From: a phage
DNA: 64,000 bases
Strand: one strand, 5' to 3'
Sequence record: PQ724393.1
Shown here: piece by piece, positions 1 through 19,516 of the stretch
Position numbering within the stretch: the stretch's first letter is position 1
How the letters are laid out: every line of letters starts with the position of its first letter
Notes under the pieces: model-generated
Told to the model about the DNA's origin: nothing
The model's database searches: none
The model's input: the letters and a program-made list of their open reading frames with translations, nothing else
Program-made: the position numbers and the translations under genes

Positions 1-22
1 GGGACCGTAAGGTCCCTTTATC
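1..22 (+). terminator. GC hairpin gggaccgtaaggtccc (GTAA loop) plus T-run; putative terminator of the upstream late transcript
   Basis: 6-bp stem, 4-nt loop, then TTTAT; identical copy at 47974-47994 after gene 35. Confidence 0.4.
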
Positions 23-24
23 AT

Positions 25-1032
25 TTATTTGGATACTAGTTCAATCCATACTGCTCGTAAGGTATCTTTTACGCACTCAACGAGCTGCTTTTTAACTTCA
101 ACAGGATTTTCGGCATCAGTTAATTCTAATTCTTCGCGGGCTGCTTCTTCCAAAATATCTTGGACTGTCAGTCCCATCACCTTTCCAAAATCCTTTTTAG
201 ATACTTCACCAATCTTACTGATAACGTTGTTAATACGGTTAACAGTCACATAATCAGTGAATTGCCACATCAAGTCCATATCGTCTTGGGATAAAACCAC
301 TGCAACTTTAATAGGCTTATCAGACTTTTTCTTCTCGCTGAATTTAGAGTTCTTACATTTAATCGCTACACGATTTCCGTTTGGAAGCCAGATAGGAACA
401 TCAGGTTTCAGTACAAAGCCTTCGGCGGTGAATACTTTACCTTCTACCTTAGGAATAAAATCTGTTGAGTTCGCAATAGTTAGGCCAGCATTATCCACTG
501 CAAAATTATAATCAGGAACAACAGAATCAAAATCATTAGGAAGTTTAATAAGGTCTTCAAAGCTACCAGTGGCCAGACATGGCGCAACCTTAAACTTATG
601 GATAATACAGAAGGCTTCCATCAATGTATCGGATAGAACAGATTCTGAGCCATCTTCCTTAGTAACTCGGATATCGAACACATAAAAGTCTTTATCACCG
701 TAATCCACATTCTTCTGGATACCCGGCCCAGCGAATTCGCCGTAAATTTGATATGACTGATAATTAATCGATTCAATTAGATGTTGAACGGATTTAATAG
801 AATCAGCATAATTCTTTAAAACAATTTCATAACCAAAGAAATCTTCAGCAGGGAGGATAGGGCCAGTGCGCTTGGCGCATGTGACTGCGTCACGTTCTAT
901 GATTAGACTAAAGTTGGTCCCATGAATCTTCTCACGTGCCACCCATTCACCACCAGTCAAACCGTTAGTACGGAGTTTTTCGATAAACTTACTGTTGTAG
1001 TGGTTTTCGAGACTGCTATATTTCTTGAACAT
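25..1032 (-). CDS. rnlB: RNA ligase 2 (T4 gp24.1 / Rnl2)
   Basis: 335 aa; KIHGTN nucleotidyltransferase lysine motif near N-terminus; length and sequence closely match T4 Rnl2 as recalled. Confidence 0.9.
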
Positions 1033-1146
1033 AAATCACCATAATAAATATAATTAAATAGAAGAGCTAGTAGTCTTCTGTCACCAAGCCAAATGGTTTA
1101 ACGGAAGGACCTAGACCCATTATATCACACCTAAATTTAAAGCATA

Positions 1147-1395
1147 TTACTTTGAACCAGAACGCGCTTTGCGCCGAACCTTGTTGTTCAATCTTTTACG
1201 ATAAACAACCTTTTCTTTCGCTTTAAATTTGGCCTTGGCTTGTTCTACATCAACCCATGCTTTGGCCATATCCTTAGCGGTCCCGCCCATTTTTTTAGCA
1301 ATTTCTATAAAATTCAACCCGGATTCGTGTAAAAAATGTACTTTAACCTTGTCCATAACAATTCTCTCGTTGAGTTGGTAAACCCATCTTAACAT
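1147..1395 (-). CDS. small basic protein with helix-turn-helix-like segment (24.3 position); true start may be ATG at 1356
   Basis: ORF between rnlB and hoc; segment SGLNFIEIAKKMGGTAKDMAKAW plus Lys/Arg-rich tail; internal Met (MDKV) preceded by a weak GAGAG RBS. Confidence 0.4.
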   Translation of the reverse strand: MLRWVYQLNERIVMDKVKVHFLHESGLNFIEIAKKMGGTAKDMAKAWVDVEQAKAKFKAKEKVVYRKRLNNKVRRKARSGSK

Positions 1396-1427
1396 AGGAT
1401 TTTTAACTTGTAAACAGGAATTTTGTA

Positions 1428-1455
1428 CTTTAATGCAAAATGGGCCTTGCGGCCC
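1428..1455 (-). terminator. intrinsic terminator after hoc
   Basis: hairpin gggccttgcggccc (GCAA loop on - strand RNA) followed on - strand by AUUUUGCAUU. Confidence 0.5.
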
Positions 1456-1459
1456 ATAA

Positions 1460-2308
1460 TTAGTAAACGTAATCGTATATAATACCAGCTTCTAAAGCGG
1501 TGCGATGAATAATTCGACCATTACGAGATTCTTGTACATCAACCTCTGGATAGTCGGTAATCATTTTTTGAAGTGTATATCGGTGTAAATAATACGGGCT
1601 ATCTGGGTTATCGGTTTTCCAGTCTTTGCCTTCAAGAGTCATTTTCTGAATTTCATCCATGACCCACCAACCGCACCGGATATAAGCTGAATTGCGTACT
1701 GGCAATGGGTGAACGTAAGGTAATTCGCCATCTGGAACAGGTGCGACTTTAGCCGTGACTGTTACATTACCGGTTTTTGTGACAGTCACCGGGTCATAAT
1801 CAGTCGCCGAAACCACAACAGAAACTTCAATAACCTGTGAACCTTCGGCGCTTGTGTCGATTGCTAGAGTATCCGTGGTGCCAACTACAGGAGAACCGTC
1901 TTTCTTCCAAGAATAGGCAAAAGTAGCGCCAGCAGGCGCGCCGACTACATCCGCTTTAAAAGAAGCTGGAGTGCCTTCAGGAACATTAATTGATTCTGGG
2001 GTTAATGTCACAGAAACACCAGACATAGTTTTATTCTGGATAGTTAAAGTTGTTTCAGCTTCAGCTGTTTCTGGTTCGCCGTCCGCTGGTGTAGTTGTTG
2101 CAACCACTTTAATAGTCTTGCTGCCTGCTGGACCAACAGCAACATAATCCATTGCAGCAGTCACAGAAGATTGAGGAACGCCATCAACGGTCCAGACAAA
2201 TGATTCAGTACCTTCAGCTGCAGCACCGGAACCGGTCGCAGTGAAATTGGTTGTTGCTCCAATAACGGCCGTAGCCGCCAAAGGAGAAATATCTACGGTA
2301 TAAGCCAT
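1460..2308 (-). CDS. hoc: Hoc, highly immunogenic outer capsid protein (two Ig-like repeats plus capsid-binding domain)
   Basis: 282 aa; C-terminal LPYVHPLP...CGWWVMDEIQKMT...YYLHRYTLQKM...EVDVQESRNG matches T4 Hoc capsid-binding domain; N-terminal Thr/Val-rich Ig-like repeats. Confidence 0.85.
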   Translation of the reverse strand: MAYTVDISPLAATAVIGATTNFTATGSGAAAEGTESFVWTVDGVPQSSVTAAMDYVAVGPAGSKTIKVVATTTPADGEPETAEAETTLTIQNKTMSGVSVTLTPESINVPEGTPASFKADVVGAPAGATFAYSWKKDGSPVVGTTDTLAIDTSAEGSQVIEVSVVVSATDYDPVTVTKTGNVTVTAKVAPVPDGELPYVHPLPVRNSAYIRCGWWVMDEIQKMTLEGKDWKTDNPDSPYYLHRYTLQKMITDYPEVDVQESRNGRIIHRTALEAGIIYDYVY

Positions 2309-2317
2309 AATAAACCC

Positions 2318-2989
2318 TTATTTTAAAGTGACAAAAGATGAGTTACGAGTTTCTCGTACTAGAACAGACCCATTACGATTGATGTAATAAATCAAGCTGA
2401 ATAGTGTTTGGTGTGCGGTAGGATGTTGGAAACTGGTTGGACGTTCTTTCCAATCCGGAGTCTCAGAAATCCATTGGTAAATCCACCAAGGAACGGTGCA
2501 ATAACCCGGGTTCTTACCGATAAGCAAAAGATTAGGACTGAAGTTTTCAGGTAAAGAGAATACAGGTTTTTCCGATTCGATAACCTTGGTTACAGCCTCT
2601 TTGAATTTCTCTTCGACAAACGGGACATCCTCTTCAATAATCTCTACCTTAGGAAGTTCGGCCACCTCAATGACTTCAACAACTGCCTCAGGAGCATCGA
2701 ACAAAAGGGTGGCTTCTTCTTTAGCTGGTTCTACACCTTCGATAAAGTCATTACCGCCGGTGAGTTCGTTATCAGCATCAATCAAATCAGAAATAGACAA
2801 ACCTTCTGTTTCTGGAAGTGGTTCGTCAGCCAAGGCTTTAAGGCCTTCAGAGATATCGATAATCAAATTATCAAACGAACGGGTTTTCTTAAGTTTTAAA
2901 CCGAACTGTTCGCCGTATTCGATTAACTTAGCTTTAGCTTCTTTTTTATCTTTGAGTGCACGAAGCTCTTCAATATATTGAGTATCCAT
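2318..2989 (-). CDS. inh: Inh-like acidic protein (inhibitor of prohead protease)
   Basis: 223 aa, strongly acidic, located between hoc and uvsW as in T4. Confidence 0.6.
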   Translation of the reverse strand: MDTQYIEELRALKDKKEAKAKLIEYGEQFGLKLKKTRSFDNLIIDISEGLKALADEPLPETEGLSISDLIDADNELTGGNDFIEGVEPAKEEATLLFDAPEAVVEVIEVAELPKVEIIEEDVPFVEEKFKEAVTKVIESEKPVFSLPENFSPNLLLIGKNPGYCTVPWWIYQWISETPDWKERPTSFQHPTAHQTLFSLIYYINRNGSVLVRETRNSSFVTLK

Positions 2990-3008
2990 AATTAGTCTCT
3001 TGTTGGTG

Positions 3009-3016
3009 TATAAATA
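3009..3016 (+). promoter_or_regulatory. T4-type late promoter TATAAATA for uvsW
   Basis: exact TATAAATA 29 nt upstream of the uvsW ATG. Confidence 0.6.
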
Positions 3017-3022
3017 TAACTA

Positions 3023-3030
3023 TATTTATA
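3023..3030 (-). promoter_or_regulatory. T4-type late promoter (TATAAATA on - strand) for inh-hoc
   Basis: reverse complement is TATAAATA, 34 nt upstream of the inh start; divergent from the uvsW late promoter. Confidence 0.55.
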
Positions 3031-3044
3031 ACTGAGAATTACTT

Positions 3045-4541
3045 ATGCAAATTCAAGTACATTTTGATAATTTTAGTCATGTCCGTATCGAGTGTGATGA
3101 ATCCACATTCTACGAACTTAGAGACTATTTTAGCTTTGAAGCTGATGGATATAAATTCAACCCTAAATTTCGTTATGGGCAATGGGATGGACGTATTCGT
3201 CTTCTAGATTATAACCGTAAACTGCCTTATGGACTTGTCCCTCAAATTAAAAAGTTCGCCGAACAATTTGAATACTCTCTGTGGATTGACCCACGTATTC
3301 TTGAACAGGAAGATATTTCTCGTGAAGATTTTGACTCATGGGTATCTTCTCAAGAAATTTATTCAGGGTCTACCAAGATTGAGCCTCATTGGTATCAGAA
3401 TGAAGCCGTATACAACGGCCTGACAAAACGTCGTGCAATTCTGAATTTACCTACATCCGCAGGTAAATCATTGATTCAGGCGCTCCTGAGTCGATATTAC
3501 GTTGAGAACTATGAAGGTAAAATTCTTATATTAGTTCCTACTACTGCACTCGTCGACCAGATGATTAATGACTTCATCGATTATCGATTGTTCCCTAAAG
3601 CCGCAATGCTTGGTATTCGTTCAGGTACTGCTCGTGATTCTGATGCAATGATTTATGTTTCAACTTATCAAACTGCTATCAAGCAACCTAAAGAATGGTT
3701 TGCTCAGTTTGGTATGTTTATGAATGACGAATGCCATTTGGCTACAGGTAAATCTATTTCTACTATCATCGAAGGCCTAACCAACTGTATGTTTAAATTC
3801 GGTTTGTCTGGTTCTTTAAAAGATGGTAAAGCTAATTTAATGCAATATATGGGTTTGTTTGGTGATGTGTTTAAGCCAGTATCCACTTCACAGTTAATGG
3901 AAGAAGGACAGGTTACTGACCTTAAAATCAACAGTATTTTCCTTCGTTATCCGGATGAATTCACTGTTAAGATGAAAGGTAAAGATTACCAATCAGAAAT
4001 CAAGGTCATTACTAAAGCTACTCGTCGTAATAAATGGGTTGCTAATTTAGCTGTTAAACTCGCTAAGAAAGAAGAGAACGTATTCCTGATGTTTAAAAAC
4101 ATCGAACACGGTAAAACTCTTTTTGAAATGGTTAAAGAGCAACATAAAGAAGTTTATTACGTATCAGGTGAAGTTAATACCGAAACGCGTAATGCTCTGA
4201 AAGTAATGGCGGAAAATGGTAAGGGTATTATTGTTGTGGCAAGTTATGGTGTGTTCTCTACTGGTATTTCTGTTAAGAACCTTCACCACGTTGTATTTGC
4301 TCATCCAGTAAAATCTAAAATCATTGTACTCCAGACAATTGGTCGTGTGCTCCGTAAACATGCCTCTAAATCAACAGCACAGGTGTGGGATATCATCGAC
4401 GACATGGGTGTTAAGCCTAAATCAGCTACGGCTAAAAAGAAATATGTTCATTTGAACTACGCCCTCAAACACGCTTTAGAACGTATTCAACGTTATGCTG
4501 ATGAGAAATTTAATTACGTAATGAAACAGGTGGATTTATGA
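3045..4541 (+). CDS. uvsW: UvsW DNA/RNA helicase (SF2)
   Basis: 498 aa; Walker A NLPTSAGKS, DECH box (MNDECHLATG); N-terminus matches T4 UvsW as recalled. Confidence 0.9.
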   Translation: MQIQVHFDNFSHVRIECDESTFYELRDYFSFEADGYKFNPKFRYGQWDGRIRLLDYNRKLPYGLVPQIKKFAEQFEYSLWIDPRILEQEDISREDFDSWVSSQEIYSGSTKIEPHWYQNEAVYNGLTKRRAILNLPTSAGKSLIQALLSRYYVENYEGKILILVPTTALVDQMINDFIDYRLFPKAAMLGIRSGTARDSDAMIYVSTYQTAIKQPKEWFAQFGMFMNDECHLATGKSISTIIEGLTNCMFKFGLSGSLKDGKANLMQYMGLFGDVFKPVSTSQLMEEGQVTDLKINSIFLRYPDEFTVKMKGKDYQSEIKVITKATRRNKWVANLAVKLAKKEENVFLMFKNIEHGKTLFEMVKEQHKEVYYVSGEVNTETRNALKVMAENGKGIIVVASYGVFSTGISVKNLHHVVFAHPVKSKIIVLQTIGRVLRKHASKSTAQVWDIIDDMGVKPKSATAKKKYVHLNYALKHALERIQRYADEKFNYVMKQVDL

Positions 4542-4765
4542 AAACCTTTAAAGAAGTTATTCAAGAAGCATCTATTGAAAGCTTCATGGCTAAAATTGGT
4601 TCTTGTCAGACTATGGACGGTCTGAAGGAATTGGAAAAGTATTACAAAACTCGTAGTAAGGAAGCCGAACTTCGTGATTCGGATGATATTAGCGTGCGTG
4701 ATGCATTGGCTGGTAAGAGAGCTGAATTGGAGTCGATGGACGACGAGGAAGAGGAAGATTTCTAA
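4538..4765 (+). CDS. uvsW.1: UvsW.1-like small acidic protein
   Basis: 75 aa ORF whose start overlaps the uvsW stop; acidic C-terminus. Confidence 0.6.
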   Translation: MKTFKEVIQEASIESFMAKIGSCQTMDGLKELEKYYKTRSKEAELRDSDDISVRDALAGKRAELESMDDEEEEDF

Positions 4766-4795
4766 ACAAAAAAGGCCCAACCTTTCGGAAGGGCC
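4764..4795 (-). terminator. hairpin plus U-run terminator for the uvsY operon
   Basis: ggccc...gggcc stem; on - strand followed by TTTTTTGTTT. Confidence 0.45.
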
Positions 4796-4824
4796 AATAA
4801 CCATAAATGGCTATACACACTAGA

Positions 4825-4992
4825 CTAAAGTAGTAATTGGGTTTCGTTCAGCTGTTCTTCAGTGTTTTCCGTAACAGGCAGGCTTTGAACGTAATTATAA
4901 CATGAGCCCGGATGAACCGGACCTTTTTCTGTTTCAACAACCAATGCAGCATCGATTGGAGTTTTACAGACAACGCAAATCTTATCTGACAT
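4825..4992 (-). CDS. 55-aa Cys-containing protein (uvsY.-2 position)
   Basis: ATG at 4992 with AAGGAG RBS; MSDKICVVCKTPIDA...; below the 60-aa cutoff of the ORF table. Confidence 0.4.
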   Translation of the reverse strand: MSDKICVVCKTPIDAALVVETEKGPVHPGSCYNYVQSLPVTENTEEQLNETQLLL

Positions 4993-5020
4993 GATTGTCT
5001 CCTTAGTTTAACTTACATAT

Positions 5021-5119
5021 CTATTTATTACTTGATAAAGCAGTATTAATGAATTCTTGAAGAAGTTTCATTTTATCGGCATCTACTTTAATGGGTTTGG
5101 TATTTTTAGTACGTCTCAT
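5021..5119 (-). CDS. 32-aa basic peptide (uvsY.-1 position)
   Basis: ATG immediately follows the uvsY stop (TAAATG); MRRTKNTKPIKVDADKMKLLQEFINTALSSNK. Confidence 0.3.
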   Translation of the reverse strand: MRRTKNTKPIKVDADKMKLLQEFINTALSSNK

Positions 5120-5554
5120 TTATTTACCTGCCTCAAATTGTCTCATCTCATGCATGGTCTTAAGGTTAAAACCCCGCGCCTTAATAGCATCAAGTGCTGA
5201 ACTACAAAAGTCCTGTAACAAAGCCCAATACTGGATTGATGTGTCGATTTTAATTACACTAGAATCCGCAGCCATAACGGTCTTTAATTCAGACTTCTCA
5301 TATTGGTCCATACAAACCTCATCACCAGGCTCTCCACGTCCCGTGTAGAAATCTAATCGCTTCTTAAGTGAGGTCTTTTTCTGGATTTCTAATCTCAATA
5401 TTTCTTTCTTACAATTCGTATACAGCCTTAGCCATTTGCTGTGCAGCAAAACGTTGTTCTGTACTTCATATTGTAAACGAGTTCCATCAATCTTTAAATC
5501 CTCGTCTAATGCGTCCTGAAATGATTCTAATTTATATTCAATCTCTTTACTCAT
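5120..5554 (-). CDS. uvsY: UvsY recombination mediator
   Basis: start moved to internal Met (MSKEIEYKLESF) with AGGAAA RBS; KLQYE..NNV.L.SKWL...LDFCS.ALDAIK.RGF matches T4 UvsY. Confidence 0.85.
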   Translation of the reverse strand: MSKEIEYKLESFQDALDEDLKIDGTRLQYEVQNNVLLHSKWLRLYTNCKKEILRLEIQKKTSLKKRLDFYTGRGEPGDEVCMDQYEKSELKTVMAADSSVIKIDTSIQYWALLQDFCSSALDAIKARGFNLKTMHEMRQFEAGK

Positions 5555-5585
5555 CGCATGTTTCCTGTGTAATAACCATAGGACC

Positions 5586-5612
5586 ATTATACACTATTCA
5601 TTTGAACAGCAA
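5586..5612 (-). promoter_or_regulatory. possible middle/early promoter upstream of uvsY
   Basis: - strand reads TTGCTGTTCA...N...TATAAT (MotA-box-like TGCT plus -10). Confidence 0.25.
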
Positions 5613-6002
5613 TTAACCACTCTGTGAGAGCTGGATTCTAATTTGCTCTAATGTATCTGGGTCATCAACTATACTAAACTGAACCGTCACTATAATCGAG
5701 TTATCATCGTACACAGGTGTCACACCTACAGCCAGGGTAGAAATTCTGGGTTCGAAGTTCCGCACAGCGGAAACTATATTACGCTTAATGGTATCCGTGA
5801 TTAGTGGAGTAATATTCTCAAACAATTGGTTACTGATGTCACAACCAAATTCAGGCATAAAAGGGCGTGAACCTTTGCGAGTAGTAATAATGCCTAACAA
5901 ACTATTTTTTACTGCACGAGCACCTGTAGCTTTAGCGACGTCTCTATTCCAAGACGTCCTCATTTCAGGGTCTAAATCTGAATACATTTTATTGATATTC
6001 AT
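5613..6002 (-). CDS. 25: baseplate wedge protein gp25
   Basis: 129 aa; NINK.YSD.DPEM...LLGIITTRKGSRPF.PEFGCD matches T4 gp25; TAATG coupling with gene 26. Confidence 0.9.
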   Translation of the reverse strand: MNINKMYSDLDPEMRTSWNRDVAKATGARAVKNSLLGIITTRKGSRPFMPEFGCDISNQLFENITPLITDTIKRNIVSAVRNFEPRISTLAVGVTPVYDDNSIIVTVQFSIVDDPDTLEQIRIQLSQSG

Positions 6003-6625
6003 TACATCACCTTAAAGAACTCTTTAAGTCCCTCAATAACGTGGACGGTATGTTCACCACATTCACAAGAAATAGGTATAGCCAAAATAGGCTTAGGGGC
6101 GACTAGTGCATCATAAACTTCTTTTATGTCTTTTTCTGTTATCGCAGAATAAAGGTCATCAAGTTCCGCATCACTTAAATCGGAAAGAAAAAGCTTTTCG
6201 CCTGCAGAAGTTAAAATATAATCGATACACCCTGCGACCATCATAGCTCTATTTTTATCTTCAAAGAGTTTAGGATATCTGAAAACAATTTTAAAGTTGC
6301 CAAAGTCTTTAATAACATCCGGCTCTTTACCTAATGTTGCGCGAGTTAGTGTCATAGGAACAACCTGTGAGCGACCACAACTACAAACCCACTCACGTTC
6401 TATATTCACTTCAGCTAATGAATGGGCCCACAGGTTTATCACCAGGAGCTCAGATTCCTGCTTGTTTAAATCACGAGCATCTGTGCAATTCGAAATGAGT
6501 TCATTGATAAAGGACTCTATTCTGCCTTCTAATTTAGCTTGGAGCAAGTCCTTATACTCTCTGAGGGTAAATGCTCTGCATTTTATGGTTTTGTTTTTAA
6601 TTTTTACGTCAAAAGTATAATTCAT
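6002..6625 (-). CDS. 26: baseplate hub protein gp26
   Basis: 207 aa (T4 gp26 about 208); position between 25 and 51; AAGGAG RBS. Confidence 0.75.
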   Translation of the reverse strand: MNYTFDVKIKNKTIKCRAFTLREYKDLLQAKLEGRIESFINELISNCTDARDLNKQESELLVINLWAHSLAEVNIEREWVCSCGRSQVVPMTLTRATLGKEPDVIKDFGNFKIVFRYPKLFEDKNRAMMVAGCIDYILTSAGEKLFLSDLSDAELDDLYSAITEKDIKEVYDALVAPKPILAIPISCECGEHTVHVIEGLKEFFKVM

Positions 6626-6643
6626 TGTCTTCTCCTTTAAGCT

Positions 6644-6651
6644 TATTTATA
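6644..6651 (-). promoter_or_regulatory. late promoter (TATAAATA on - strand) for genes 26-25
   Basis: overlaps the divergent + strand late box by 4 nt. Confidence 0.5.
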
Positions 6652-6655
6652 AATA
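6648..6655 (+). promoter_or_regulatory. late promoter TATAAATA for gene 51
   Basis: exact TATAAATA 20 nt upstream of ATG 6676. Confidence 0.55.
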
Positions 6656-6675
6656 CATCAATAAGAGGACACCCT

Positions 6676-7428
6676 ATGGCTAATATAGTACGTTGTGAAA
6701 TGCCTGATGGAGTCCACCGATTTAAACCTTTTACAGTAGCTGATTATCGTGATTTTATTTTGATTCGAAATGACATGAATAATAAATCGCCTGAAGAGCA
6801 AAAACAAATTTTAGATGAGTTACTGGAAGAATACTTCGGTGAATATCCTATGTCATGGCGCCCGTATATGTTCATTGAACTTTACACGTCATCACTCGGC
6901 AAGACCAAAATTCCTATCCGATACACTTGTAGTAAGTGTGAAAAGGATAGACAAGTCTTATTCAATTTGAAGCAAGCCAAGTTAGATAACCCTACAATTG
7001 AAGTGGCTGGCCTGAAACTGACATTCAAATTTCCGGAAATAGAATATCACGACAAATCTGAATTGATTTTGAACACCCTCCAAACCGTAGAAGATGAAAA
7101 TGGGACATATAATTGGACTGACCTTTCTGAAGAAGACCAATTAGCCGTAATAGATGCTATAGACTTGTCCACTTTAGAGGATATAGTCAAACAAACAAGC
7201 CCTATTCATTTCGAACTCAAATATGGATGCTGTAATCGTAGAACAATTACGTATACCGATATTTTAGAGGTGTTTAAGCTTATAGTCAATCCGGATGAGA
7301 TATTTTTATTTTACCAAATAAACCATTTATTGGTAAAGAACAATTATTCATTAGAAAGCATTATGCAGATGATTCCAATCGAACGCGGCATTGCTTTGTC
7401 TTTGGTTGAAAAGGACCTTAAGAAATGA
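6676..7428 (+). CDS. 51: baseplate hub assembly protein gp51
   Basis: start moved to ATG 6676 (AAGAGGA RBS); 250 aa versus T4 gp51 about 249; position. Confidence 0.75.
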
Positions 7429-8594
7429 GTTCAAAAACTATGCAGCGTGAAGGCTTTCCTAATATTAGTATACGCCTTTACGAAGATTATGACGCCTGGT
7501 TAGAGCATCGTTTTGTTGAACTAGGCGCGACATTTACTACTCTAACAATGCGAGACGGGCTTTACGGTAGTAATGAAGGATTGCTCCAGTTTTATGATGC
7601 AAAAAACCTTCATACTAAAATGGATGGTGAGCAGATTATCCAAGTTTCTGTTAAGAATGCCAACTCGGAACGTACCCAATCAAGAATTTACGGAAGTAAA
7701 CACTTTGCAGTAGGGGTGGATTCTAAGGGCGACAATATCATAACAATACAACTCGCCCCTATCCACTTTTTAGAAAATCTTAAATTCGGACGTATGTTCT
7801 TCCCTAGTGTTCAAGAAACATTAACTGAAATGATTGGTGTTATTTATCAAGACCGTCCACTTCTTGCACCTCCATTGAACGGGATAAACGTTTACGTTCC
7901 TAATGTTCCTTGGTGTGATTCAATGGACAGATATATGGAATTTGTACGAGAAGTTGGTATGGCTGTTGAATCTGATAAATTTGTATTTGTCTGGGAAGAT
8001 ATAGATGGTATTTCTATTATGGACTACGAATTTATGGTTAATCAAGAGCCAATTAATTTTGTGGTGGGTGAGCCGCGTTTAATAGGCCAATACGTTCAAG
8101 ATATGGATACTCCTATCGCATTTGATTTTGAATGGTTAACTAAAGCCAACCAGCATTCCAGAAAGCCATATGAAAACGCTACTATATACGCCCACTCTTT
8201 CTTAGACAAAAACGCCACACGAATTACTTTTGGCGATGGGCAAAACAGTATATTGGTTTCTCGCTCTGGTGGATATTCTGATTATACCTACCGAAACGGA
8301 TTTGAAGAAGCCGATAGATTAGTTACTATGGCCCAATACGACGGCTACGCGCATTGTAAGGTATACGGTAACTTTGAACTAACTCCAGGCGATAAGATTA
8401 ATTTCTATGACCCTAAAAACCAATTCCAATACGATTTTTATGTAGACGAAGTTATTCATGAAGTGAGTAACAATACATCAATTACAAACCTTTATATGTT
8501 TACTAATGGTAAGCCTATTAAGATTGAAGAACCACCGAAGGTTAAAAATGAACTTAAAACTGATACTCCCGATCAAGAAAATAACGCTGGGTGA
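7425..8594 (+). CDS. 27: baseplate hub protein gp27
   Basis: 389 aa (T4 391); position; overlaps gene 51 stop. Confidence 0.85.
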
Positions 8595-9075
8595 CAAAGA
8601 GATTTCCATTCCTAAATTGGGTCTTAAACACCAGAAATTGGTTAAAGATGAAAAGGACCCTTACAAGGCTCTTCACATATTAATGAATTCCATTTATAAA
8701 GATTTATCCGCGGCAGAGACTGATTTTGCCGCTCTTCACCTTTTAGAATTCAATGGAAGATTAAAAAGTAAAGTAACCAAAGACGGGTTTACTTATAACT
8801 TAAATGACCTTTATATCTGCCAACGACTTGAATTCCAATTCCAAGGTAAAACATTTAAATTTAAATCACATGAACCATTTCAAACATTTGGACCTGTTGA
8901 TAGTGTATTACAGTCCCTTTACCTTGGTGATGATGTACCAGATTTTCTGGATATGCCTGCCTTTGTTGCTACATGGGCCGACGATATAACTTCTACTATA
9001 GCTATCCCTGGTCCTAATGGTCCTATCAAAGGATTGCTTAAAATCATGGATATCTTAAATGAAGAACGAATCTAA
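8548..9075 (+). CDS. 28: baseplate hub distal subunit gp28
   Basis: start moved to internal ATG ([11 protein letters not shown]); about 175 aa versus T4 177. Confidence 0.7.
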
Positions 9076-12821: not shown

Positions 12822-12849
12822 CAAAAAAGGAGAGCGTACGCTCTCCTTT
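12822..12849. terminator. bidirectional palindromic hairpin terminator between gene 54 and the alt cluster
   Basis: ggagagcgtacgctctcc with A-run 5' and T-run 3'. Confidence 0.55.
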
Positions 12850-12855
12850 AGGGGT

Positions 12856-13146
12856 TTACTTACGGAACGAAATGAAACCTGCTGCAGTCATTAATGGCTG
12901 CTTTTTAACAAAGACTGTAATAGAAATAGGAGCTTCAGATTCGAGTTGTCCTGTCACTACACCGTTAAAAATGTTTTCGGTTTGTTCTGGATAAGAAAAA
13001 TTCTCAACAGGTCGGATATCAAACTGTTTGTCTTCACCAAAAACTCGACGTAATTCATTACCTACGGCACTGTCAAACTCTTCAGAAGCAGGGATAACGT
13101 TTTCAACCACCAGTTCTTGACCATTAAAACGGAATGCAGATTTCAT
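12856..13146 (-). CDS. hypothetical protein (alt.-3 position)
   Basis: 96-aa ORF between gene 54 and the alt genes. Confidence 0.4.
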   Translation of the reverse strand: MKSAFRFNGQELVVENVIPASEEFDSAVGNELRRVFGEDKQFDIRPVENFSYPEQTENIFNGVVTGQLESEAPISITVFVKKQPLMTAAGFISFRK

Positions 13147-13203
13147 AATGTTCTCCTCATGTTTGTGTAAGGTAATAGTACCACATCCTTGTGGTGTTGT
13201 AAA

Positions 13204-15327
13204 CTACATTTTGAATTTATTTGATAAAGAAGAGATATCCAAAGACGCTGCAAGGATTTCCATAGCCTCGTTGCTTTCAGAAACGGATTCATTAACCAAG
13301 AATTGACTGAACCCATCCATCAGGCGAACTTCACCGGTTTCCATCAAATGGTCACCATCGTAAACAGATTCACTGAGCTCTGAAGGAGGTGTTACGGTAG
13401 CTTCCATAAGGTATTTGTGAGATACTCTATCATTCATGGCAAAAGCCGCTACTTTATCAACCTTCAACAATAATCCACGCGGAAGGATAATTTCTGCTTC
13501 TTCGGCATATTCTGTAAGGTCACCAGGAGCGATAACTTTAACTGCTTCAGCACCTCGAATAACCATACCAATTTCAGCAATTCTATCCGCAGGACCTTCA
13601 GGTGCAATTGGATTACCGAACTCGTCTTCTTCCCATTCTACCTCTTCGTCATCGACTTCACCCACATCAGATGAACTACCGCTAGCCAATTTAAACAACT
13701 CATCAGCGGAGGATAAAGAACCTTCGCCGCCAACAAAAACGGCTTGGTTGTCGAGGGCCATATAATTTTTACCAAATTCACCAAAGATGTTAGGCTTTAA
13801 TGAGGCTGACACAAAGTTCTTAAAGTAAAATGTTTTGTTATCGATATTATGGCGCAGAATTTTGTATGGCAAATCCTGACCACGATACAAAATAGTACCC
13901 TTAGGAAGTTTAATACCCTTAGTAAATGCTGAGTCTAAATCCTTAATCAATTTAATAGCCGTTGTATTGTTTTCGGATTCAGGTTTACCTAAAAGGAATA
14001 AGTTCATAGGAGCATATTCAGCCGCGCAATATTCAATAATAGCATTGCTTTCGTCTTTGGTTAGGTCCTTAGGTTTAATGAGCTCGCCTGAATAAGCATA
14101 TGCATCACTAATAGAATCGTTAACCAGTTTATAAACGGCTTCCATAGCGAAAGCAATTCGAGAGGCCTTTTCTGAAGGGGAACCCTTAAAACGGGTACTC
14201 AGGTTATTAACAATTTTCTTAATAATATCCAGACTATTGGTTGTATTGATTTGCGAAAGACCACTTAAAAGTCTATCGACTTCTGTATTAAAAAATGCCA
14301 TATTATTAGAGTAAATTTCAAACCCTTGTTTATCTCTATTAGCATAATTTAGTTTAAATTTACTATCAGTCATTAAAGCGTGTGTGAGAGCAATAGTGTA
14401 TCTAAAGTTGGCAAGGTCCTCGCTCTTAGATTTAAACTGAGAAGCCTGGCGCATTTTAGTAATAGCACCTTTTTTAAAGTTCTGGCTAATCTGTTCAATA
14501 CCTTCATTCTCAGGGCCTTCAGCCGTGTGAACCGGTACAGAAGCTTCAAACTCGTTATAAACCTGCAATTCTTTAGGGGACAAAGTTTCAGGCTCAGCAG
14601 TAGAATACTGCGCGGCTGCTGCCATACGACGGGAAATCTTAGTACGGGTAATGACAGCCTTATCAGTACGTTTCTCTTCAACTTGTGCAATAGATGCCGC
14701 TACTGCTTCGACCTTACTTACGGCCTGGCCGGTTTTCTTAGAAACATACACTTCGCCAACTTTAGACTCAACTTTAGTATAAAGATCGGCATTAATTTCA
14801 GGCATACCCTTGATATCTTCAATATTAGCACCACGACGTACTAAAAGAACGTAGGTATGTTTTCCGCTGAATTGGAACATGTCGTCAACAACTTTAAACT
14901 TACCACCGGTACGAGCCATAGCCAAACGAGCTAATACGCGCTGAACGGTAGGGCCTTTACCTTTCATTTTCTTAGTAGGGAAACGGAATAAAACCGCGTC
15001 CATTTTAAGTTTGTTTATTTGTTCATATATGGTATCGAAAATGGTGTTCAGTGTACCGAGTGGATCGGTACCCAAACCGCCCTTGAGTTCTGCCGGAGCG
15101 CCTTTAGCAGATAAACTCATTAAGATAACATGGACGTACTTATCGCCCGCCTTAACCATCTTAATAGCGTCGCCTTCAGACGCATAAGATACCATACGTG
15201 CTACTAAATTGTCATTACCAGGAGCATGTACCGCAAAAATCTGCGGTACGCCTGAGCCAGGTTTAAGATTTGTTACTGGGTAATTTTTTTTATCGCTTTT
15301 ATCAAAAACTTCGTTTAAATTTTCCAT
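13204..15327 (-). CDS. alt: Alt-like ADP-ribosyltransferase, paralogue 1
   Basis: 707 aa; N-terminal ~235 aa shared with T4 Alt and the other two paralogues; C-terminal R-S-ExE signature (LYRGQ, FVSASLKP, EAEIILPRG). Confidence 0.85.
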   Translation of the reverse strand: MENLNEVFDKSDKKNYPVTNLKPGSGVPQIFAVHAPGNDNLVARMVSYASEGDAIKMVKAGDKYVHVILMSLSAKGAPAELKGGLGTDPLGTLNTIFDTIYEQINKLKMDAVLFRFPTKKMKGKGPTVQRVLARLAMARTGGKFKVVDDMFQFSGKHTYVLLVRRGANIEDIKGMPEINADLYTKVESKVGEVYVSKKTGQAVSKVEAVAASIAQVEEKRTDKAVITRTKISRRMAAAAQYSTAEPETLSPKELQVYNEFEASVPVHTAEGPENEGIEQISQNFKKGAITKMRQASQFKSKSEDLANFRYTIALTHALMTDSKFKLNYANRDKQGFEIYSNNMAFFNTEVDRLLSGLSQINTTNSLDIIKKIVNNLSTRFKGSPSEKASRIAFAMEAVYKLVNDSISDAYAYSGELIKPKDLTKDESNAIIEYCAAEYAPMNLFLLGKPESENNTTAIKLIKDLDSAFTKGIKLPKGTILYRGQDLPYKILRHNIDNKTFYFKNFVSASLKPNIFGEFGKNYMALDNQAVFVGGEGSLSSADELFKLASGSSSDVGEVDDEEVEWEEDEFGNPIAPEGPADRIAEIGMVIRGAEAVKVIAPGDLTEYAEEAEIILPRGLLLKVDKVAAFAMNDRVSHKYLMEATVTPPSELSESVYDGDHLMETGEVRLMDGFSQFLVNESVSESNEAMEILAASLDISSLSNKFKM
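14620..15327 (-). repeat. direct repeat: conserved 5' ~700 bp of alt paralogue 1
   Basis: roughly 80% nucleotide identity to 16669-17379 by eye; approximate boundaries. Confidence 0.6.
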
Positions 15328-15330
15328 TAT

Positions 15331-17379
15331 TTACCCTTGGGTGAATTTTTCTGGGGTTTCGTCAAAATTAATACATGAAGCTAAAATAGGCATTATATCC
15401 ACCTTGGTCGATTTGACGAATGAATCAAAAGACACAGGGTTGTCGGTCTCTGTTTCTACGCCTTGGTAAACAACCAATTCACCGGTTTCCATCAATGCAT
15501 CACCATCATAGATAACCGCATTTTCTGCTAGTTGGTCTGTGGTCTGGATATCGGCTTCCAATAATTTGGTGTTGTAGTTTCCTTTATATGAGGCATCAGT
15601 AATTTTAGTAATCTTAACAGTAGTTCCGCGTGGAAGAATAACCTCTTGTTCTGTTGGAGAACCTGACAATTCACCGGGCACAATTACGTTAATAGAGTCT
15701 GCACCGGAAATTTTCCAACCGATGTTCATCATTGTATTTTCGGAACTCGTCAGCATACTTGGAAGAACAATTTCATTATCGCCTTGGAAAGATGTCCCAA
15801 CGCGATAGTCCTGATGAACTGCGGCCATTGCGACGTTTGATACCCAGCCGCCAAAGATAATCGGCTTAAGGGACGTTGATACATAGTTCCTGAAATAAAA
15901 CAATTTTGAGTGTTTGATTTTATCAAAAGTGTTAACATTTAAATATTGACCACGCCAAAGTGTAATATCAGGTGGCAATTTATGGCCAATTTCAAATGCC
16001 GCATCCATATCATTAATTACTTCAATTACATGATGGCTATCAATGAATTCTGCATCCTCTTCATAATAATCACCCAACAAATAATTATTAACATCGGTAT
16101 AATATTGGCCGCAATAAGAAGAAATAGCCTCACGCTGCTCATACTCAAATCGATTATCACTATAACTGGCTGTAAAATGCATAACACTTTCTGAAGCTTC
16201 ATTAGCAAAGTCGGCAACAGCAGCACTTATACGTTGAGCATACTCTTGTTCCCAAAGCTCTGCTGCATATTCTGCCGCATCCATATTAGGAGGGGCCTCA
16301 TTCATTTTTCTTTCGATAAATGCAGCTTTGCGAAGGTTAAGAACCTCTGCACATGATTCGGCAAAAATCTGCATCTGCTTCATACTGCCGACAGGAGCAC
16401 GTTTAAGTTCACGATGCATACGGTTAAAAATTGGGTCAGAGTCTTCGACTCGAATTTCTTCTTTCCACACACCATTTGCTCGCATAGCCGTATCTGCCGC
16501 GCGCATACGCTCCATAGTATTCGTTTCAGAAGGTTGAATAAAAATTTCTAGTTCTTCATAATCATCGATAAGTTCCGCTGTTGCTGGGGCACTAAATTTT
16601 GATGCCTCTGCATCAATCTCATTCCAACCTTCCGGAACTTCATCTCGAGGAGAATACTGGGCTGCGGCTACAGCACGCCTAGAAATCTTGGTAGTGGTAA
16701 TAACAGCCTTATCCGTACGTTTTTCTTCGACTGCCGCTATACTAGCAGATAGTGCTTCTATTTTGGTTACTGATTGGCCTGTTTTCTTGGATACATAAAC
16801 CTCACCAACTTTAGACTCAACCTTAGTGTAAAGGTCTGCATCAATTTCAGGCATACCTTTTATGTCCTCAATATTAGCTTGTTTACGAACCAGTAAAACG
16901 TATGTATGTTTGCCTGTAAATTGATACATATCATCGACAACTTTAAACTTGCCGCCAGTACGAGCCATCGCCAATCGTGCCAATACACGTTGAACAGTAG
17001 GACCCTTACCTTTCATTTTCTTGGTAGGGAACCGGAAAAGAACTGCATCCATTTTAAGTTTGTTTACTTGTTCGTATACAGTATCAAAAATGGTATTCAG
17101 CGTACCAAGTGGGTCAGAACCTAACCCGCCTTTCAGCTCGGCTGGGGTACCCTTAGCAGACAAACTCATCAAAATAACATGAACATATTTGTCGCCAGGC
17201 TTAACCATTTTAATAGCGTCTCCTTGAGACGCATAAGATACCATACGAGCCACCAGATTATCATTACCTGGTGCTTGGATAGAGAAAATCTGTGGAACAC
17301 TGGAACCCGGTTTAAGATTTGTTACTGGATAGTTTTTAGCGGAATCACTATCAAAAACCTCGTTTAAATTTTCCATCAT
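15331..17379 (-). CDS. alt: Alt-like ADP-ribosyltransferase, paralogue 2
   Basis: 682 aa; same N-terminal module; ART motifs LWRGQ, YVSTSLKP, EQEVILPRG; unrelated central region. Confidence 0.85.
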   Translation of the reverse strand: MMENLNEVFDSDSAKNYPVTNLKPGSSVPQIFSIQAPGNDNLVARMVSYASQGDAIKMVKPGDKYVHVILMSLSAKGTPAELKGGLGSDPLGTLNTIFDTVYEQVNKLKMDAVLFRFPTKKMKGKGPTVQRVLARLAMARTGGKFKVVDDMYQFTGKHTYVLLVRKQANIEDIKGMPEIDADLYTKVESKVGEVYVSKKTGQSVTKIEALSASIAAVEEKRTDKAVITTTKISRRAVAAAQYSPRDEVPEGWNEIDAEASKFSAPATAELIDDYEELEIFIQPSETNTMERMRAADTAMRANGVWKEEIRVEDSDPIFNRMHRELKRAPVGSMKQMQIFAESCAEVLNLRKAAFIERKMNEAPPNMDAAEYAAELWEQEYAQRISAAVADFANEASESVMHFTASYSDNRFEYEQREAISSYCGQYYTDVNNYLLGDYYEEDAEFIDSHHVIEVINDMDAAFEIGHKLPPDITLWRGQYLNVNTFDKIKHSKLFYFRNYVSTSLKPIIFGGWVSNVAMAAVHQDYRVGTSFQGDNEIVLPSMLTSSENTMMNIGWKISGADSINVIVPGELSGSPTEQEVILPRGTTVKITKITDASYKGNYNTKLLEADIQTTDQLAENAVIYDGDALMETGELVVYQGVETETDNPVSFDSFVKSTKVDIMPILASCINFDETPEKFTQG
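16669..17379 (-). repeat. direct repeat: conserved 5' ~700 bp of alt paralogue 2
   Basis: see 14620-15327. Confidence 0.6.
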
Positions 17380-19464
17380 TTACCCTTGGATGAATTTTTC
17401 TGGGATGTCATAGAGGTCTATGCATGAAGCCAAAAGAGGCAATACATCAAACCGTGTAGATTTAACAAATGAATCAAAAGATACAGGGCTTTCGGAAGTA
17501 TCGAAGTCATCTTGATATACGACCAACTCGCCGGTTTCCATTAGTACGTCACCATCATATACCACAGATTCTTGAAGCTCATCTGTTGTCATAACTTCAG
17601 CTTGGATGAGTTTTGTATTACTAGATGTTGTTCCATCATTATTAGAAGAATCTGTTATTTTATTAACTTTGACCATTAATCCACGCGGTAGAATAACTTC
17701 GGCTTCAGTTGCTATTCCGAGATTTCCTGGATATACGACATTAACTTTATGAGCCCCATCAATAGCCCATCCTATTTGAACTTTAACATAATCAGGATTT
17801 TCTTTATATGCTCTTATTTCATTAGGATTAATAGTTATTCCTTCTTCATTTTTATCGACTGTCAATTCATTGCGAACTTCCGGTTCTAAAAGACCAATAC
17901 CTGCGTGGGTAACACCAAAACGTCCAAAAATGATAGGAGTTAAAGAAGTAGATACAAAATTTCTGAAATAGAACACTTTATTTTTAACTAGTGCTTCGTA
18001 TATAGGAGCAGTCATACTCTGAGCACGATAAACTGTGATGCCCTCTGGTATACGGTCGCCATTTTCAAAAGCAGAATCCAAATTATTAACCGCGGATTCG
18101 ATATCTTTTTCGCTCATAACCTCATAGTTCTGAGGATTATAACGTCCTAAAAGAAGATTATTTATGTCTGTATATCCTGAACCACAATATTCTCTGATGC
18201 CGCGCTTTTGTGATGGGGTATATTTAGAGCCCTCACGAGCAATAGTAATATCGACCATAATACCGCCACCCACACCAGCAAAACTATATACACGTTTTTT
18301 AATGAACTTGGTCTTGGCGGCTTTCCACTTCGCATCGGTCAATTCATTCCAGAGGTCGTCAGGTTGGCCTTTACGAGTTTTGTTATGCCATGCCAGCCAT
18401 TCACCTTTGTATTCTTCGAAAACGGTATTAATAGCAGAGGCATATTTTTCTAGAGCTTTAACAGATGTCAAAGGTTCGTTTTTGATGGCCGTAAGAATTT
18501 TATTTTTAATTTTCTCTTGGATTTCACCTATACCGTGAAGAGGAAACATTTTATAATCGTAATGCAATTCTTCAGCCGTGCCTTCAGCCACTATATTAGC
18601 AACCTTATTTTTAGCCGCAGGAGAATTGTTATTAGTAACCATTTCCTGAGCCTCAGGGATTAATGGAACTGTTGCAGGTTTATTAAAATCTGCTGCAGTA
18701 GCTTCATATTTCTTAAACAATTCACTTTCATTACGATAAGATTCCAATGATTGGCTTGCTGCAATGGCGCGCCTAGAAATCTTAGTCTTGGTTATAACCA
18801 TTTTATCAGTGCGACGTTCTTCAACCTTAGCAATACTGCCGGCAATAGCAGTTTCTTTAGTAACCTGCACACCTTCTTTTTTGGAAATATAAACTTCACC
18901 GACATCAGAATCTACCTTAGTATACAATTCAGCATTAATTCCAGGCATACCTTTGATATCTTCGATATCAGCTTGTTTACGAACTACTAAGATGTAAGTA
19001 TGTTTACCGGTAAATTGGTACATAGCCGGAACCACTTTAAAACGTCCACCGGTTTTCTGTGCTACCAAACGTTGGATAATCCGTTGGACAATAGGTCCTT
19101 GTCCTTTCATTTTCTTGGTAGGAAAACGGAACATCACGGCATCCATACGAAGCTTTTTAACTTGGTCATAAACCACATCAAAAATAGTATTAATCGCATC
19201 TACAGGAGTAGGGCCAAGGCCACCTTTAAGTTCGGCTGGAGTACCTTTAGCCGATAAGCTCATTAAAATTACATGAGCATATTTATCGCCTAATTTAACT
19301 TGTTTGATTGCGTCGCCTTCAGAAGCATAAGAAACCATACGTGCTACTAATTGGGACTCTACGCCACCAATCTTCCAAATCTGCGGTACTTTAAGTTTAG
19401 GGTTCAAGTTTACTGTAGGCAGTGTGCCTTCGGACTCAAACACTTCATTTAATTGTTCGGTCAT
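17380..19464 (-). CDS. alt: Alt-like ADP-ribosyltransferase, paralogue 3
   Basis: 694 aa; N-terminal module about 65% identical to paralogues 1 and 2; ART motifs VYRAQ, FVSTSLTP, EAEVILPRG; C-terminal tail shared with paralogue 2. Confidence 0.85.
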   Translation of the reverse strand: MTEQLNEVFESEGTLPTVNLNPKLKVPQIWKIGGVESQLVARMVSYASEGDAIKQVKLGDKYAHVILMSLSAKGTPAELKGGLGPTPVDAINTIFDVVYDQVKKLRMDAVMFRFPTKKMKGQGPIVQRIIQRLVAQKTGGRFKVVPAMYQFTGKHTYILVVRKQADIEDIKGMPGINAELYTKVDSDVGEVYISKKEGVQVTKETAIAGSIAKVEERRTDKMVITKTKISRRAIAASQSLESYRNESELFKKYEATAADFNKPATVPLIPEAQEMVTNNNSPAAKNKVANIVAEGTAEELHYDYKMFPLHGIGEIQEKIKNKILTAIKNEPLTSVKALEKYASAINTVFEEYKGEWLAWHNKTRKGQPDDLWNELTDAKWKAAKTKFIKKRVYSFAGVGGGIMVDITIAREGSKYTPSQKRGIREYCGSGYTDINNLLLGRYNPQNYEVMSEKDIESAVNNLDSAFENGDRIPEGITVYRAQSMTAPIYEALVKNKVFYFRNFVSTSLTPIIFGRFGVTHAGIGLLEPEVRNELTVDKNEEGITINPNEIRAYKENPDYVKVQIGWAIDGAHKVNVVYPGNLGIATEAEVILPRGLMVKVNKITDSSNNDGTTSSNTKLIQAEVMTTDELQESVVYDGDVLMETGELVVYQDDFDTSESPVSFDSFVKSTRFDVLPLLASCIDLYDIPEKFIQG
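18760..19464 (-). repeat. direct repeat: conserved 5' module of alt paralogue 3 (more diverged)
   Basis: protein-level conservation of residues 1-235; approximate. Confidence 0.45.
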
Positions 19465-19486: not shown

Positions 19487-19494
19487 TATTTATG
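19487..19494 (-). promoter_or_regulatory. late-promoter-like box (CATAAATA) upstream of alt paralogue 3
   Basis: 7/8 match to TATAAATA, 23 nt upstream of the start. Confidence 0.35.
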
Positions 19495-19500
19495 CCAGAA

Positions 19501-19516
19501 AAGGCCCGAAGGCCTT
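19501..19516 (-). other. UUCG-tetraloop stem-loop
   Basis: aaggcccgaaggcctt; - strand RNA loop UUCG. Confidence 0.4.

Follow-up and report, generated by a model that had tools for sequence, protein, structure and literature searches.

Alt is a textbook case of a protein injected together with phage DNA. About 40 copies of the T4 protein (gpAlt, NP_049811, 682 aa) are packaged in the head and ejected along with the DNA. The prohead protease gp21 cleaves T4 Alt at two sites, following ITE-6 and LTE-619 (Ali et al. 2017, PMC5694885; review PMC9026906), and the LTE-619 cut takes 63 C-terminal residues off the protein (PMC5694885). The T4 internal proteins with a capsid-targeting sequence are, like Alt, core-packaged, processed by gp21 and ejected, although their constant part is a 10-aa targeting sequence, whereas that of Alt is a 230-aa domain plus a C-propeptide. 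Nolan et al. (2006, PMC1524935) reported paralogues of alt in T4-like genomes and regarded alt.-1/alt.-2 of T4 as having arisen by duplication of alt. Here we analyze three adjacent alt genes, which we call A1, A2 and A3, in a 64,000-nt stretch of phage sequence record PQ724393.1 (the window, to which all coordinates refer). We find that their products share end modules and differ in a large internal cassette, and comparison with related phages indicates that such cassettes have been exchanged while the end modules stayed in place.

Three alt genes at the T4 alt locus

The array belongs to a JS98-group (Dhakavirus) T4-like coliphage. Its first gene, A3 (17380..19464, 694 aa), is followed by A2 (15331..17379, 682 aa) and A1 (13204..15327, 707 aa), all on the minus strand, with 0 nt between A3 and A2 and 3 nt between A2 and A1; the initial annotation of this sequence had given three adjacent full-length open reading frames (ORFs) with exactly these coordinates and lengths. 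Each gene was identified from its ORF, Pfam and PHROG matches and domain identities. The array is flanked on one side by DNA ligase (gene 30) and a small ORF resembling alt.1, and on the other by an alt.-3-like ORF and the baseplate genes gp54 and gp48, placing it between gene 30/alt.1 and alt.-3/gp54, the order also found around alt in T4. All three proteins match Pfam PF03496 (ADPrib_exo_Tox) with E values between 3e-17 and 8e-36. They also match PHROG 802 ("Alt-like RNA polymerase ADP-ribosyltransferase") from end to end, at E ~1e-250, and have the ADP-ribosyltransferase (ART) exoenzyme fold of the Alt family, which falls in the Alt/VIP2 clade of R-S-E ARTs. The R-S-ExE core reads YRG, SAS and EAE in A1, WRG, STS and EQE in A2, and YRA, STS and EAE in A3, as annotated, and no copy lacks a catalytic residue; R482, S507, E610 and E612 (numbered as in A1) do not vary among 49 family representatives. 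Given the PF03496 and end-to-end PHROG 802 matches and these invariant catalytic residues, the triplet of intact Alt-family genes is genuine, far beyond chance.

The three proteins share with T4 Alt the locus, a five-part architecture, the catalytic residues and the positions of both gp21 sites. A3 is the orthologue of T4/T2 Alt, with 48% full-length identity to the T4 protein but only 36% (centre) and 63% (ART) in the cassette, and where T4 has one full-length alt plus the remnant alt.-1/alt.-2, three intact genes are found here. Each protein would consist of an N-propeptide of 6–7 residues ending at LNE, an N-module (~225 aa), a cassette, an L-x-E site and a C-propeptide of 54–63 residues, the cassette combining a predicted all-helical centre (~175 aa) with a C3/VIP2-type R-S-ExE ART domain. 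In A3, the N-propeptide (MTEQLNE, cut after its last residue) and N-module (alpha/beta domain and linker helices), placed by alignment and model, span 18769..19464; the effector cassette (all-helical centre and R-S-ExE ART), to the predicted gp21 site LQE632, spans 17569..18768; and a predicted C-propeptide of 62 aa, the homologue of the 63-residue piece cut from T4 Alt by gp21, spans 17380..17568. The corresponding parts of A2 are at 16681..17379 (domain identities), 15523..16680 (to the predicted site LAE619) and 15331..15522 (63 aa), and those of A1 at 14632..15327 (domain identities and model), 13369..14631 (to the predicted site LSE653) and 13204..13368 (54 aa), all likewise on the minus strand; in both, the predicted C-propeptide was placed by homology to that of T4 Alt. 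LNE, within residues 4–7 of all three proteins, is the counterpart of T4 ITE-6, and LSE653, LAE619 and LQE632 are the counterparts of LTE-619; the glutamates of both sites are at least 90% conserved across the Alt family. Because both cleavage motifs are kept in A1, A2 and A3, packaging of each copy is plausible.

The Alt-specific N-module (~230 aa) of the three proteins is 42–44% identical to that of T4, with 33 columns invariant among 10 sequences. Over residues 1–232, identity is 89% for A1-A2, 67% for A1-A3 and 70% for A2-A3, against ~85% and ~65% as first estimated. The segment between this module and the core measures 171–183 aa rather than the ~200 aa proposed. The ART cores are mutually only 33–39% identical, and divergence is thus not limited to the centre; the C-tail of A1 is the most divergent (30–35% identity to the A2 and A3 tails), and overall the three proteins are ~50% identical.

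AlphaFold2 models of A1 (predicted local distance difference test score, pLDDT, 78.6; predicted template modelling score, pTM, 0.78) and A3 (pLDDT 83.9, pTM 0.81) both contained a confident alpha/beta N-module (~residues 18–200) followed by linker helices, and a central domain composed entirely of helices, six to seven of them; confidence was low for the C-tail and for the loop between STS and ExE. Searches with the N-module returned no match in Pfam (E up to 10), in NCBIfam or, by profile, in PDB sequences, its models gave weak GNAT-like matches, and we found no solved Alt structure in the copy of the PDB that was searched. Neither the N-module nor the centre contained a second ART fold in the models, which would set Alt apart from the enzymatic components of binary toxins (VIP2, iota Ia, CDTa, C2I), where an inactive ART-like adaptor is N-terminal. 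Relative to the C3, iota, VIP2 and Certhrax ART toxins, Alt is without a second ART-like adaptor domain and without a B-component, and is delivered by phage ejection. A1 also carries, at residues 519–582 between STS and ExE (13582–13773, minus strand), a 64-aa acidic stretch with 17 D+E against 3 K+R. Much of this stretch is predicted to be disordered, with pLDDT <50, and it lies where the fold differs most from one paralogue to another; most of it is absent from A2, and ~22 of its residues are absent from the second alt gene of T2.

The three-copy arrangement is already annotated in close relatives, with no experimentally assigned functions. Escherichia phage fDHCT2, with its genes alt_1, alt_2 and alt_3, is 99.3% identical over the 6.3-kb region, and QL01, MX01, C6 and AnYang have the array at 94–97% identity, annotated as three Alt-like transferases. 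Taken together, the three-gene arrays, deposited for at least 9 Dhakavirus genomes (fDHCT2, QL01, MX01, C6, AnYang, KIT01, LHE83 and UGJNEcP3/4), have the same genes in the same order at 94–99% nucleotide identity, labelled either alt_1/2/3 or "Alt-like RNA polymerase ADP-ribosyltransferase" (x3), and the A2-specific centre occurs at ≥93% identity in 9 distinct phages. We found no functional study of a three-gene array in the searchable literature. The triplet is a known, annotated feature, whose value lies in its interpretation and not in its discovery.

Lineage-specific frames and exchanged cassettes

The initial annotation held that the central regions are unrelated among all three proteins. 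At the sequence level A1 agrees with this, its centre having no significant similarity to those of A2 and A3. The other pair does not: the A2 and A3 centres are colinear (21.6% identity over 162 aa, BLASTP E=4e-4), and in phmmer searches each matches orthologues of its partner, the A2 centre T4 (2e-8) and the A3 centre VR7 (1e-6). By these similarities, the A2 and A3 centres are homologous and form one class with those of T4, T2, JS98 alta, VR7, EcS1 and CHI14. A second class comprises A1, the T2 second gene and, via intermediates, the SP18 alta type. Neither phmmer nor hhalign (probability 6%, P=0.006 over 33 columns) linked the two classes significantly, and a protein homologue search with the A1 and A2 centres returned no match in a database that evidently did not include the Alt family. 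In the models, both classes are all-helical and of equal length. Superposition of the A1 and A3 models on that of SP18 alta in BFVD extends over >660 alignment columns (template modelling scores 0.83 and 0.73, target-normalised), a comparison that is indirect, passing through SP18 alta, as BFVD is without a full-length model of a T4-type (class I) Alt. The superposition suggests, short of proof, a scaffold common to both centre classes.

We mapped mosaicism with domain-wise identities and 30-codon sliding windows. The idea of swapped centres on a shared catalytic core proved wrong in detail, the exchanged unit being the centre together with the ART domain, ~380–420 aa. A3 makes this clear. Against JS98 alta, its amino acid identity is 97% in the N-module and 98% in the C-tail but 37% in the centre and 63% in the ART; against T2 Alt, the pattern is reversed (N-module 45%, centre 66%, ART 93%, C-tail 49%). 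At the nucleotide level, codons 1–235 and 629–694 are 84–98% and 94–96% identical to JS98 alta, whereas ART codons 406–610 are 79–98%, mostly ≥90%, identical to T2 alt. The breakpoints fall at codons ~230–255, in a conserved KISRR linker, and at codons ~617–628, just before the C-terminal cleavage site. Judged by these identities, A3 is a JS98 alta-type frame bearing a T2-like centre+ART cassette.

A2 is likewise a chimera as read from its domain identities, because its N-module is only 40–41% identical to that of VR7/SP18 altb while its cassette is VR7-type. The N-module is instead 91–92% identical to Dhakavirus altb (JS98, PSD2002), with 92–98% nucleotide identity to JS98 altb over codons 1–60, and the cassette is 82–83% (centre) and 76–77% (ART) identical to VR7/SP18 altb. 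The Gaprivervirus alt of VR7 and SP18 thus represents the source lineage of the A2 cassette, differing in its N-module (40–41%); the C-tail of A2 is nearest that of A3 (65%). Centres of the A2 type occur in VR7 (its only alt) and SP18 (altb) and, more distantly, in EcS1, Serratia CHI14 and relatives.

Two further comparisons show the same pattern. UGJNEcP3 has A2 and A1 genes 97–99% identical to those in the window, but its first gene bears a JS98-type rather than the T2-like cassette: A3 and that gene are 98% identical in the N-module and 95% in the C-tail, against 36% in the centre and 62% in the ART. Between T4 and T2 Alt, synonymous divergence (dS) is 0.09 in the N-module and 0.13 in the C-tail and reaches 1.37 in the cassette. 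These comparisons indicate that cassettes have been exchanged between phages, and that what stays constant, fixed within each phage lineage, is the N-module together with the C-terminal propeptide. The junctions between genes are also alike: the A3/A2 junction is almost base for base that of JS98 alta/altb and has the same form as that of T2, and the A2/A1 junction repeats A3/A2. We found neither cassette exchange nor three-gene alt arrays as a published topic in the searchable literature, which left out the JS98 genome paper. The cassette-on-frame organisation, with no description in that literature, is the most interesting reading of the locus and is directly testable.

Polymorphic toxin systems offer a parallel, combining a constant delivery module with a recombinationally exchanged effector, and arrays; the mosaics of A2, A3, UGJNEcP3 and T4 versus T2 are the counterparts here. 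They differ in that the alt locus has no immunity genes or silent cassettes and all its cassettes belong to one enzyme superfamily. No small coding-strand ORFs lie between the alt genes.

We also considered how the array arose. The ~700-bp direct repeats reported at the 5′ ends, which had been suggested to promote copy-number change, do exist (65–82% identical in ungapped blocks), but they are too diverged to do so frequently now. Exact matches between paralogues reach 21 nt at most, and the A1-A2 N-modules have a dS of 1.9 at a nonsynonymous divergence (dN) of 0.08, with dS of 1.8–2.3 in comparisons with A3. With synonymous sites saturated and no longer exact match, the repeats are poor recombination substrates today, and the array in its current form can be expected to be fairly stable. 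Recent tandem duplication or ongoing gene conversion as the source of the 89% A1-A2 N-module identity was rejected on the same saturation; given the low dN, that identity has been kept by purifying selection. The A2 cassette compared with VR7 has dN of 0.06–0.17 and dS of 0.8–0.9, and on the evidence of reading frames and substitution rates all three genes are intact and under purifying selection.

Historically, copy number and composition of the locus have changed, the phages examined showing four combinations of one, two or three genes. JS98, IME08 and JS10 have two genes, alta (akin to A3) and altb (akin to A1), without A2, and the JS98 alta cassette is an allele other than that of A3. By sequence, A1 is of the JS98 altb lineage, and T2/T6-type phages have a centre of this type too, in their second alt gene. 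T2 has two full-length alt genes, the second ("alt.-1") directly downstream of alt; it has the same centre type as A1 (47%) and an ART 60% identical. The A1-type centre appeared in 446 phage records, ~400 of them Tequatroviruses including T2 and T6, at ~45% identity. The T2 second gene starts with MELITELFDGASAPVV, as does T4 alt.-1, which identifies alt.-1/alt.-2 as the 5′ stump, all that T4 holds, of a second gene. The single copy of T4 is thus the result of loss, and T4 is the exception rather than the rule. The array is not an expanded set in any recent sense, as each paralogue is an old lineage also present in other genera; it represents largely retention and reshuffling of old paralogue lineages rather than expansion.

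Beside these lineages, we observed a fourth Alt type of 624–631 aa, which is the first gene in SP18 (locus 3415-5289) and PSD2002 (locus 4091-5986). It has its own centre, an ART 32–39% identical to the others and an unrelated C-tail (9–27%). PSD2002, representing Dhakavirus wg01-type phages, has a different three-gene array, of 631, 693 and 707 aa.

Proposed injection, possible host targets and competing explanations

Considering these results together with the behaviour of T4 Alt, A1–A3 are probably head-packaged, protease-trimmed and injected arginine ADP-ribosyltransferases, in which the end modules serve head incorporation and the cassettes set the host modification. The three-gene array would be transcribed late, and each product would follow the course of T4 Alt: incorporation into the prohead core, trimming of both termini by gp21, retention in the head and ejection along with the DNA. 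NAD+-dependent arginine ADP-ribosylation of host proteins would then occur ahead of any phage gene expression. The end modules would stay constant within a lineage, presumably to fit the head of that phage, while recombination at the two module boundaries would exchange cassettes, and stacking in arrays of one to three would yield a phage-specific set of injected enzymes. For this array, we infer packaging, injection, arginine specificity and non-identical target spectra; distinct or partly overlapping target sets are plausible because T4 Alt itself modifies at least 27 proteins.

Several points weigh against this interpretation. Head packaging and activity of A1 and A2 are argued from analogy, and the head-targeting role of the N-module and C-propeptide is suggested by their lineage-specific conservation; the discoverers of the C-terminal cleavage leave the role of this cut open (PMC5694885). 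T4 Alt is promiscuous, with at least 27 targets including R265 of RNA polymerase alpha and R84 of MazF (PMC8120803), and with so many targets heavy overlap among the paralogues could occur. In addition, we found no exact copy of the T4 late promoter motif TATAAATA in the alt locus, the best late-promoter match being 7/8.

Functional redundancy would take such overlap to its limit: the three enzymes would modify the same host proteins (RNA polymerase alpha Arg265, for example), and instead of new targets, their divergence would mirror an arms race against host factors able to recognise or inhibit Alt, or simply dosage. The target list of T4 Alt is already broad, alt is non-essential in T4 (PMC9026906), and all three copies have the arginine-type E-x-E and a similar stretch just ahead of it, as this explanation would expect. 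We nevertheless consider it unlikely, given that the ART domains are merely 33–39% identical and the centres differ, that each lineage has been kept across genera under purifying selection, which argues for distinct functions, and that the few Alt copies in a head (~40) limit any simple gain in dosage. More doubtful still is packaging and injection of A3 alone, with A2 and/or A1 acting inside the cell late in infection or decaying like T4 alt.-1/alt.-2. Retention of both protease motifs, the N-module and the C-tail in all three proteins speaks for packaging of each, and decay is difficult to reconcile with reading frames intact in at least nine phages, dN/dS well below 1 and an A1-lineage centre retained in ~400 Tequatrovirus records, even though T4 shows loss of a second copy and the A1 C-tail is the most divergent (30–35%). 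Finally, tandem paralogues sharing 5′ modules can mislead assemblers, but a repeat-driven assembly artefact is almost inconceivable for genes ~50% identical overall, with no exact repeat >21 nt and an identical arrangement in independently sequenced phages from several countries.

Injection of all three enzymes remains our preferred explanation. The effector parts of the copies are indeed very different; variability confined to the centre does not hold, since the cassette that varies includes the ART (33–39%). The initial annotation was thus correct as an observation and partly right as an interpretation.

A broader possibility, which we find attractive while leaning slightly against it, is that the T-even-type alt locus is a polymorphic injected-effector system, in which a lineage-specific frame carries exchangeable centre+ART cassettes with different host targets among phages. 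At least four cassette lineages exist, with at least two central-domain classes that have no detectable mutual sequence similarity. Under such a system, cassettes may move between Tequatrovirus, Dhakavirus and Gaprivervirus, and their targets possibly include defence proteins, as with MazF. If the targets of the paralogues are distinct, multi-alt phages would inject several enzymes at once, and cassette identity could affect the host range or defence evasion of therapeutic T4-like phages. The clean module boundaries further suggest a design rule for loading T4-type heads with foreign enzymes: retain the N-module and C-propeptide and exchange the middle.

Expression signals, neighbouring genes and distant relatives

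Upstream of A3, on the minus strand, lie a terminator-like hairpin, AGGCCTTCGGGCCT, with a T-run (19497..19515), kept in 9 of 9 phages compared, and a late-promoter-like CATAAATA (19487..19494), which matches 7 of the 8 positions of T4's TATAAATA; TATAAATA itself stands at the same position in T4, T2, VR7 and SP18. The order hairpin, CATAAATA, AAGAGGA and ATG, with either TATAAATA or CATAAATA, is the same in all nine phages, and a conserved terminator upstream of alt has been remarked before (Nolan 2006, PMC1524935). Scans of the locus for sigma-70 promoters and terminators gave background-level results. A2 and A1 start 0 and 3 nt past the preceding stop, and the end of the preceding gene (CAAGGGTAA) offers a Shine-Dalgarno-like AAGGG; from this layout we infer one late operon with coupled translation. 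Five genera have this unit of hairpin and late-promoter-like motif ahead of their first alt gene, and it resembles the promoter-terminator cassettes proposed for modular shuffling in T4-type genomes (PMC2839356, PMC4122927).

Directly downstream of A1 is a 96-aa homologue of alt.-3 (12856–13146, minus strand). It is preceded by a T4-early-like promoter (GTTTACA, 17 nt, TACTAT; 13175–13203) and followed by a strong hairpin terminator (12826–12849). In T4, mutants with a C-terminal extension of Alt.-3 escape the CmdTAC defence system (PMC11618068).

Beyond the phages compared above, tblastn with A3 found 1,793 places in 1,221 records, and an exhaustive HMMER search of 1.84 billion representatives returned only 108 relatives, ~55 of them full-length. 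A few of these relatives (P0071, P0073, P0084 and P0086; 347–1142 aa) match the N-module only, the remainder of each being without a Pfam domain, and may be cases of an N-module joined to non-ART cargo. Klebsiella phage vB_Kpn_AM_K5 (Jiaodavirus) has six large ORFs at the alt position (1–8909); none matches the N-module profile, and matches to the ART and C-tail profiles are confined to the last (310 aa). BFVD further has entries for "split" Alt proteins of Acinetobacter phages, and the alt locus appears to be much more plastic outside coliphages.

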